Positions 15,975 to 16,540 of a stretch of DNA of 64,000 bases are shown here, one piece after another (the stretch's first letter is position 1; each line of letters starts with the position of its first letter). A program made the translations under genes and the position numbers. Origin of the DNA: Candidatus Saccharimonadota bacterium (GTDB taxonomy: Bacteria; Patescibacteriota; Saccharimonadia; Saccharimonadales; JAXHMH01); contig JAXHMH010000004.1 in assembly GCA_034521515.1 (NCBI GenBank), positions 485 to 64,484 on the forward strand, read 5' to 3'. The notes under the pieces were generated by a model. The model searched no databases, had not been told where the DNA came from, and saw only the letters and a list, made by a program, of their open reading frames with translations.

Positions 15975-16540
15975 TTGCTTGAGAGGCAATTAACTCTCGC
16001 AATCGCACACCGGCAGGTGTAATGAAAAATCTCGTTTTTCGAGAACAGTTTAGTGTGAAGAGGCTTTTAGCTGCTGGGAACCCCCGGCTAGAAGCTAACG
16101 ACTCATGCTTGGACTGCTCTCGGTTACCGGGAGGGAAGTGTTATGCAGCGATAACCGATCACTGACTATGGTAGTCGGATCGGAGCTCGGCGGAACCCCA
16201 CGAGCTGTCGCGCAGCATCGCTTCCCTCCCGAGTTCGATCAGCGCATGCGCTGACAACTACGGGCAGGGGTGAAACCTACTCGGTTCTTGGCCAGAAGGC
16301 TCCCGCCACCTTTTGGCCAAGGTCTTCGGACTCACCCCTGCCTGTCCAATCTAGTGCGATAATATATCCGCACTAAAAAGATGTGGGAGCGAGAGAGAGG
16401 CAAGCGTCCTCACAAGCCGCCAGGCGCTTGAGTTCCGGTCGTTGTATGACCGTTGAACGCAGCCAAAAAAAACGGCTGAACCTCTCTCCGCTCCCACACC
16501 CAATCATTACACCTGCTATACTCTCTATTTTTCATTAGTC
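15975..16540 (+). ncRNA. Candidate large, multi-domain structured RNA of unassigned class
   Basis: No ORF of 60 aa or more occurs on either strand across 15868-16611. The closing helix 16013-16025/16504-16516 has 13 bp.

Three multi-helix domains are closed by:
- 16129-16150/16211-16230 (about 19 bp)
- 16261-16273/16332-16344 (13 bp plus 1 more)
- 16383-16400/16481-16497 (17 bp with 1 bulge)

Hairpins include 16287-16321 (13 bp) and a cUUCGg tetraloop hairpin at 16322-16331. All G-U pairs are compatible only with the + strand. Confidence 0.65.

Follow-up and report, generated by a model that had tools for sequence, protein, structure and literature searches.

What occupies the gap that separates pheT from an ABC exporter gene in a member of the Saccharibacteria is the question raised by a 64,000-nucleotide (nt) stretch of contig JAXHMH010000004.1 (positions 485 to 64,484, forward strand; assembly GCA_034521515.1, Candidatus Saccharimonadota bacterium), hereafter the window, whose own coordinates are used throughout. 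An earlier note, made from the sequence alone, had proposed that the gap holds a multi-domain structured RNA of about 500 nt that fits no known class, and that could also be a giant leader of the exporter operon. Here we report that positions 15972 to ~16575 (+) are probably an independent structured non-coding RNA (ncRNA) gene of a new Saccharibacteria family. Its members share a terminal frame, consisting of a promoter, a UU-bulged 5′ hairpin, a linker, a long-range closing helix (P1) and a 3′ hairpin adjacent to P1, which is conserved in sequence and by covariation, and the element is independent of the genes that flank it.

A structured gap at a syntenic position

The gap (15868–16611) contains no open reading frame (ORF) of at least 60 amino acids (aa) on either strand, as the earlier note had stated; its longest ORFs are 47–51 aa and, as read from the sequence, have neither a Shine–Dalgarno sequence nor a hydrophobic segment. 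Gene callers placed no gene there in 8 + 4 independent assemblies. The claim that the gap is richer in guanine and cytosine (GC) than its surroundings also held, with a GC fraction of 0.52–0.59 across positions 16000–16500 against 0.34–0.47 in the flanks, and of 0.549 in the RNA body against 0.44 for the surrounding locus. Folded on the + strand, positions 15975–16540 reach a minimum free energy (MFE) of −272.2 kcal/mol (z = −13.2), with none of 100 dinucleotide shuffles as good, and on the − strand −262.6 kcal/mol (z = −9.0). The segment 16012–16517 folds at −261.7 kcal/mol with 75% of its bases paired and 11 hairpins. All 15 helices that had been listed by eye exist when checked base by base, including the 13/13 closing helix 16013–16025/16504–16516, the 13-bp hairpin at 16287–16321 and the cUUCGg hairpin, and the four G–U pairs cited with them are real. 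The gap is single copy in the 64-kb window (self-BLAST), and a copy identical from 16459 onward occurs in the independent public run SRR26473340 (Logan assembly), which indicates that the sequence is natural and reproducible.

Flanking the gap are pheT (13342–15867, +), with B3_4, B5 and FDX-ACB domains, and the ABC exporter gene (16612–18381, +), with a GTG start at 16612; both genes are complete. Downstream of the exporter gene follow an RND/MMPL-type gene, a NUDIX gene and an FKBP gene, all on the + strand, and no reverse transcriptase, homing endonuclease, transposase or recombinase gene adjoins the gap.

The window organism is a Saccharibacterium whose PheT is at most 60% identical to that of any retrieved GTDB species representative and whose ABC protein has a best identity of 75% among 5.8 billion protein clusters and of 72% in a metagenome scan; an exact-protein look-up returned one short identical contig only. 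The homologue searches envisaged in the earlier note were run with BLASTN and nhmmer on 80 syntenic loci and gave no sequence match to the gap, but synteny led to the relatives they had missed. The gene order pheS–pheT–[gap]–ABC–(RND)–nudix–fkbp is widely conserved, many syntenic loci have an ORF-poor gap of 550–1400 nt at the same position, and in ~20 Saccharibacteria loci that position holds an ORF-free gene that is just as structured (loci are designated below by L numbers). Gaps at this position give z-scores of −6 to −18. As controls, 40 other ORF-free gaps (≥350 nt) in related loci and in the window gave 0 to about −6, so that the extreme structure belongs to this locus and not to the genomes in general. 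Another recurrent ORF-free gap, after fkbp, was considered as a second RNA and rejected, being unstructured and holding an 82-aa glutaredoxin gene. Independent short-read assemblies break inside the RNA gene, 150–610 nt upstream of the ABC start (contig ends of L081 and L126–L130), which may be due to its hairpins or to strain variation.

A conserved terminal frame

The promoter proposed in the earlier note, TTGAAA (15937–15942), a 17-nt spacer and TATCTT (15960–15965), was recovered by a promoter scan (15937–15965, +). Across the family, a TTGnnn-N16–18-TAnnnT motif, mostly TTGACx-N17, precedes 18 of 23 members and ends ~6–7 nt upstream of the 5′ hairpin; in L039 and L050, which the promoter search missed, TGGACA/TTGCAT-N17-TATAAT is visible by eye. 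The 5′ hairpin, at the predicted transcript start (15972–16006, +; −12.5 kcal/mol), consists in the window of a basal stem (UUGC/GCAA), a UU bulge and an upper stem (GAGAG/CUCUC). The same architecture of basal stem, 5′ UU bulge and upper stem is found in 16 of the 17 members analysed. The first two pairs of the upper stem (G–C and A–U) are invariant and the others covary, for example from G–C to C–G and from U–A to C–G. These stems were anchored by hand; RNAalifold on a MAFFT alignment predicted nothing, the alignment suffering from register errors. A single-stranded linker follows, with the family consensus ACUUUGA, and is CACCG in the window (16007–16011, +).

P1 joins GGCAGGUGUAAUGA (16012–16025, +) with UCAUUACACCUGCU (16504–16517, +), ~490 nt downstream, in a helix of 14 bp in the MFE fold, its 3′ strand being supported both by that fold and by family covariation. 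In the family, P1 is a 13–16-bp helix that starts at GACAG and whose termini, GACAGRYRU ... AYRYCUGUC, are conserved. Among the 23 instances compared, 91.6% of the cells form pairs, and both partners have changed in 13 of the 14 pairs. The covariation score of 0.636 compares with 0.218 in shuffles (0 of 500 reach it) and at most 0.16 with the partner strand slid; this statistic is inflated, since the 3′ arms were located by complementarity. Every 3′ arm nevertheless also leads into a conserved tail, UCCUUYCCC, and the 3′ hairpin. This hairpin, which has a pyrimidine-rich 5′ strand, stands directly after P1 in nearly all members, with a U-tract following in L008 and L050; in the window it lies at 16519–16575 (+; −19.9 kcal/mol).

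A covariance model (R1), built on the 5′ hairpin, the linker and the 5′ arm of P1 and trained on 15 sequences, was searched against the window and 97 loci, 1.2 Mb in all. It recovered its training sequences at E values of 5e-10 to 4e-5, among them the window (15971–16023; 38 bits, E = 5e-6; the sole copy in the window), which had been trained on, and found three new genuine instances (L011, L085 and L006), with nothing else below E = 0.3. The window copy has every part of the frame, that is, the promoter, UU-bulged 5′ hairpin, linker, P1 and adjacent 3′ hairpin, with the variants GGCAG for GACAG and CACCG for CUUUGA. Conservation extends beyond this genome: the frame is common to homologous genes at the same syntenic place, and P1 covaries among them.

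A body that drifts in sequence and stays paired

Within P1 lies the structured body (16026–16503, +), predicted to fold into six sub-domains radiating from the P1 multiloop: an irregular hairpin (D1, 16039–16123, +), a three-way domain (D2, 16128–16231, +), a hairpin (D3, 16232–16259, +), a second three-way domain that includes the 13-bp and UUCG hairpins (D4, 16260–16345, +), a further hairpin (D5, 16352–16375, +) and a four-way domain (D6, 16382–16498, +). Among species representatives, the bodies measure 354–1313 nt, contain 5–30 hairpins and cannot be aligned with one another, and neither GUGGRAG/CUYCCAC nor any other interior k-mer motif is family-wide. Body GC is above locus GC in 23 of 23 members.

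The polarity assigned earlier to the + strand from its G–U pairs is borne out across the family: in 16 of 17 members the MFE of this strand lies below that of the − strand, with a margin of 3 to 106 kcal/mol. There are 333 internal G–U pairs on the + strand and 194 on the −, and 43 and 78 single A–C mismatches, respectively. This asymmetry points to an RNA and not to a DNA palindrome, which would be strand-symmetric.

How the body evolves can be followed within one clade, where L113 (Logan, SRR12486993) is nucleotide-identical to L013/L111 in the ABC gene, 70% identical in the RNA and 71.5% identical in the 3′ part of pheT. When the 205 pairs of the L111 MFE structure were compared with L113, 126 were unchanged, 27 were kept after a change on one side, 17 were kept after changes on both sides, 21 were broken and 14 were gapped; with the partner slid by 1–3 columns as a control, only 1–5 pairs were kept after changes on both sides. 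In the first interior hairpin of the L013 clade (6 sequences), 9 of 21 pairs show compensatory changes. The RNA is thus drifting about as fast as coding-gene DNA yet preserves its helices: within a clade, the body is constrained to remain paired while its primary sequence is free to drift. The proposed multi-domain structured RNA of ~500 nt gains support from these interior helices, kept by compensatory changes within one clade. Since the databases covered contain no relative that aligns with the window body, covariation of the body is seen only in that other clade, and the window's own body helices are predicted from thermodynamics and by analogy with the L013 clade. Separately, L113:1–4761 is ~100% identical to L111 in the ABC gene and downstream, and the switch in identity falls inside the 3′ hairpin of the RNA; it reflects recombination at this point or else a chimeric assembly.

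Frames around small-protein genes

The frame behaves as a modular cassette that can hold different cargo. About 22 of 25 frames, including the window copy, have no conserved ORF, and three enclose small-protein ORFs. L024:9326–9725 and L121:882–1311 (+) are second, tandem copies of the frame, complete with promoter, bulged 5′ hairpin and linker, in which P1 is formed by GACAAGUGUA with UACACUUGUC. They enclose a Shine–Dalgarno sequence and an ORF of 41–43 aa with two CxxCxGxG motifs, which is conserved at the protein level between L024 and L121 and weakly similar to the DnaJ central domain and to anti-TRAP; a homologue search for the 43-aa ORF yielded no candidates, and other family members contain no Cys-rich small ORF. 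The third case, L011:2757–3101 (−), lies upstream of pheS on the opposite strand and encloses the ORF of a 73-aa single-pass membrane protein, in a coding region that is weakly structured (z = −3.3).

In L085, a second large structured RNA (3400–4000, +) stands directly after the framed RNA; it has its own long-range closing helix (GCGUAGUGUU with AACACUACGC) and a 3′ part that is very C-rich and G-poor.

Comparison with known RNAs

All 4227 families of Rfam 15 were compared with the locus by cmscan, at the gathering score on the whole window and 10 related loci and in E-value mode on the region (E ≤ 10) and on 6 further loci (E ≤ 5). No match reached the gathering score; the region gave only low-scoring chance matches at E ≤ 10, and the 6 further loci gave nothing at E ≤ 5. 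ARAGORN found no tRNA or transfer-messenger RNA (tmRNA) in the window. The earlier statement that the RNA belongs to no known class, and the database comparison proposed alongside it, therefore ended without a significant match to any known family. Considered individually, RNase P RNA has no Rfam match, and k-mers of the CR-I (GAGGAAAGUCC) and CR-V (ACAGAA..CGGCUUA) type are not shared by the interiors of 13 members; tmRNA is ruled out in the window by ARAGORN together with Rfam; OLE, GOLLD, ROOL, raiA and HEARO have no covariance-model match in the window or related loci; and a group I or group II intron is rejected on the lack of an Rfam match, the intact pheT and ABC genes and the lack of an adjoining reverse transcriptase or homing endonuclease gene. 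A phage database searched in distant mode gave no match, and 12 pattern matches in viral contigs were set aside as chance, all being without linker and P1. The literature searched on ncRNA and structured RNA in Saccharibacteria, the candidate phyla radiation (CPR) and TM7x contains no description of such an RNA.

Several known RNAs nevertheless resemble it in part. Like OLE, GOLLD, ROOL and raiA, it is several hundred nt long, forms a GC-rich island in an AT-richer genome with nested multi-branch helices, and is a stand-alone, non-coding, lineage-restricted gene with its own promoter. Those RNAs have conserved cores in which many unpaired nucleotides are invariant, and they vary little in size, whereas in the present family only the terminal frame is conserved, around a variable body with long near-perfect helices, and no model matches. 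Staphylococcus aureus RNAIII (RF00503) shares a length of ~500 nt, ~14 hairpins, long-range 5′–3′ helices, fast sequence drift with helices kept, and the possibility of a small ORF (hld in RNAIII, three paralogous frames here); it differs in that there is no covariance-model match, no link to a quorum-sensing locus and no ORF in the window copy. C-rich apical loops are the working parts of RNAIII, where they pair with the Shine–Dalgarno regions of targets; here such loops are weakly enriched, at 33 of 218 (15%) compared with 21 of 222 (10%) in shuffles. Precursor-processing stems of ribosomal RNA (rRNA) and RNase III intervening sequences likewise have a long near-perfect flanking helix that is conserved while the enclosed length varies, but in our family the enclosed RNA is not rRNA, the frame has conserved hairpins on both outer sides and cleavage of P1 is putative. 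With hok-type mRNAs, the RNA has in common a hairpin right at its 5′ end, a long-range 5′–3′ helix, a 3′ terminal hairpin and a folded interior, as well as the membrane protein of L011; it differs in lacking a toxin ORF in the window, in bodies much larger than hok mRNA and in showing no sequence similarity.

Alternative explanations

Could the RNA be a giant 5′ leader or riboswitch of the ABC/RND exporter operon that controls read-through or translation? It immediately precedes the ABC gene in the same orientation, its window copy lacks a U-tract terminator, and in L073 and L038, where an extra ABC gene precedes it, it adjoins the ABC orthologue and not pheT. The alternative pairing that had been put forward as a switch does exist in the window (11 bp, p ~0.02), but in 20 of 23 family members it is no better than chance. 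Moreover, most loci have a TACAAT/TATAAT −10-like box 6–9 nt before the downstream start codon (ABC or next gene; L008, L038, L041, L050, L071, L073, L075 and L077), a spacing that implies a separate promoter and a leaderless mRNA and suggests, at the level of sequence, that leaderless mRNAs occur in these Saccharibacteria. By analogy, TTAACA (16577–16582), a 17-nt spacer, TAAGCT (16600–16605) and 6 nt before GTG 16612 form a putative separate ABC promoter in the window (16577–16611, +) with leaderless spacing; it is weak, was read from the sequence and did not come up in the promoter scan. In L008 and L050 the RNA is followed by clear intrinsic terminators. Some loci have the RNA but no ABC gene, the next gene being fkbp (L077, L031) or RND (L014, L018); in others (L012, L025, L037 and L043) the ABC gene abuts pheT without the RNA. 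A framed copy stands at an unrelated place in L011, and there is no conserved aptamer-like core or interior motif. The downstream gene thus appears to have a promoter of its own, which would mean that the RNA is not its leader, and we now regard the leader that the earlier note had entertained as quite improbable. A somewhat better case, though still an unlikely one, can be made for an ORF-less derivative of a clamped small-protein mRNA of the hok type, which would persist as a relic, as an antitoxin-like RNA or by competing for a frame-binding factor. In hok-like mRNAs (hok/sok), an end-to-end clamp with terminal hairpins is typical, and the framed ORFs of L011, L024 and L121 (the last two with a Shine–Dalgarno sequence) also speak for such an origin. 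The great majority of frames, however, have no conserved ORF, the ORF-free bodies are larger than the coding ones, GC-enriched and kept by compensatory changes, unlike decay, and the coding copy of L011 is itself weakly structured; that the bodies are maintained weighs against a relic. No antisense RNA gene turned up, although no dedicated search was made, and the promoter-like sites on the − strand all lie upstream of the element (promoter scan). A clamped small-protein mRNA is a plausible evolutionary origin of the family.

A DNA-level element, in which P1 would be the terminal inverted repeats of a miniature inverted-repeat transposable element or of an invertible or recombining cassette and the hairpins palindromic by-products, would account for a 13–16-bp inverted repeat with conserved outer bases, the tandem second copies, the patchy distribution, the jump in L113 identity from 70% to 100% exactly at the 3′ hairpin and the several assemblies that break inside the element. 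It is hard to reconcile with stability and G–U content that are strand-asymmetric in 16 of 17 members, with a conserved promoter, 5′ hairpin and 3′ hairpin outside the inverted repeat, and with a syntenic position across species of only 50–60% PheT identity. The element is also single copy in the 64-kb window and the 1.2 Mb of loci, save for the two tandem cases and L011, has one orientation in all 8 + 9 independent assemblies, and shows no target-site duplication or direct repeat flanking P1 and no adjoining transposase or recombinase gene; we consider a DNA element very unlikely. Least probable of all, to the point that we give it almost no weight, is a known class (RNase P, tmRNA, 6S, SRP, group I or II intron, OLE, GOLLD, ROOL, raiA or HEARO) missed through divergence or a large insertion. 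The size and the 5′–3′ closing helix do recall RNase P RNA and other stable RNAs, and covariance models are less sensitive when a loop carries a 500-nt insertion; yet even the permissive E values above gave chance matches in the region and nothing in six relatives, ARAGORN found no tmRNA, motifs such as CR-I and CR-V are absent from the interiors of 13 members, and a body of 354–1313 nt is unlike a fixed catalytic core. Finally, the gap as a pseudogene remnant of a coding gene was rejected: a ~240-aa gene takes the place of the RNA between pheT and ABC in L001 (7494–8219), L010, L030 and L028, of which only the L001 copy was scanned and found to be an alpha/beta hydrolase (241-aa ORF), and a decaying remnant of it would be unlikely to give z = −13, although no direct comparison was made.

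Some observations weigh against an independent ncRNA gene, or at least restrict what can be said of it. Only about one quarter of sampled species have the RNA at this place, and the closest relatives, L001 and L003, lack it, with the alpha/beta-hydrolase gene (L001) or a second ABC gene (L003) instead; the RNA is accordingly dispensable or mobile. No homologue of the window's own body occurs in the databases searched, and no conserved loop or junction motif points to a partner. The ends of the RNA are predictions, and the window copy has no canonical terminator (no U-tract) after the 3′ hairpin, so that read-through into the exporter gene is possible. To these must be added the inflation of the P1 statistic noted above, and the functional part of our proposal, which we infer.

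Other features of the window

Positions 282–6900 are unlike the compact coding of the remaining window. They include long ORFs overlapping on both strands (282–3514) and several unstructured ORF-free gaps (3515–3980, 4359–4737 and 5065–5639). A further ORF-free gap (6321–6863) has z-scores of −4.6 (+) and −3.4 (−). Four neighbouring hairpins at ~6465–6580 in this gap are near-perfect and resemble terminators, and the gap also contains two copies of a ~20-nt direct repeat, UUUUCUCUNGCUGCUCUCC.

Proposed function and significance

We propose that a sigma-70-type promoter would start transcription directly at the UU-bulged 5′ hairpin, with the linker leading into P1, which would join both ends of the RNA while a hairpin caps each. 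Such a frame may protect both ends from exonucleases and may be the part of the RNA that is recognised, as a platform for protein binding and/or for processing by a double-strand RNase. P1 would be a plausible substrate of such an RNase, and a protein might plausibly bind at the bulged 5′ hairpin. The body could then serve as a bulky, nuclease-resistant scaffold, sponge or decoy, acting by its bulk, shape and helices and not by conserved single-stranded motifs. Any one specific biochemical role remains doubtful. In broader terms, we lean towards the view that this is the first sighting of a Saccharibacteria-specific class of stand-alone RNA, of a standing like that of OLE, ROOL and GOLLD, in which a modular clamp surrounds a body of 0.35–1.3 kb or a small-protein ORF, the frame docks with or is processed by a factor, and the body acts as scaffold, sponge or decoy in minimal, host-dependent cells.

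The RNA does not qualify as a member of OLE, GOLLD, ROOL, raiA or the hok type, and it differs from RNAIII and rRNA stems in the ways given above. We rate it as a new class, within what is itself a familiar genre, the large bacterial ncRNA of unknown function. To our knowledge, large structured RNAs of this kind are rare, and each class so far has revealed unexpected biology. ROOL and GOLLD, for instance, form cage-like RNA-only assemblies (PMC12286853). No large structured RNA from the CPR is reported in the literature searched. Saccharibacteria can now be transformed and mutated (PMC10633639), so that the role of the RNA is directly testable.

The family evolves in an unusual way, with a terminal frame that is conserved and a body that is constrained only to stay base-paired. 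The reuse of this frame around small-protein genes suggests a device of general use in RNA stability or processing, and we infer that the frame may act as a cassette for RNA stability or expression. Saccharibacteria have genomes of less than 1 Mb and have lost many pathways. A fair share of their lineages nonetheless keep a non-coding gene of 0.6–1.4 kb with a near-consensus promoter, and so large a gene is unlikely to be neutral in such genomes.

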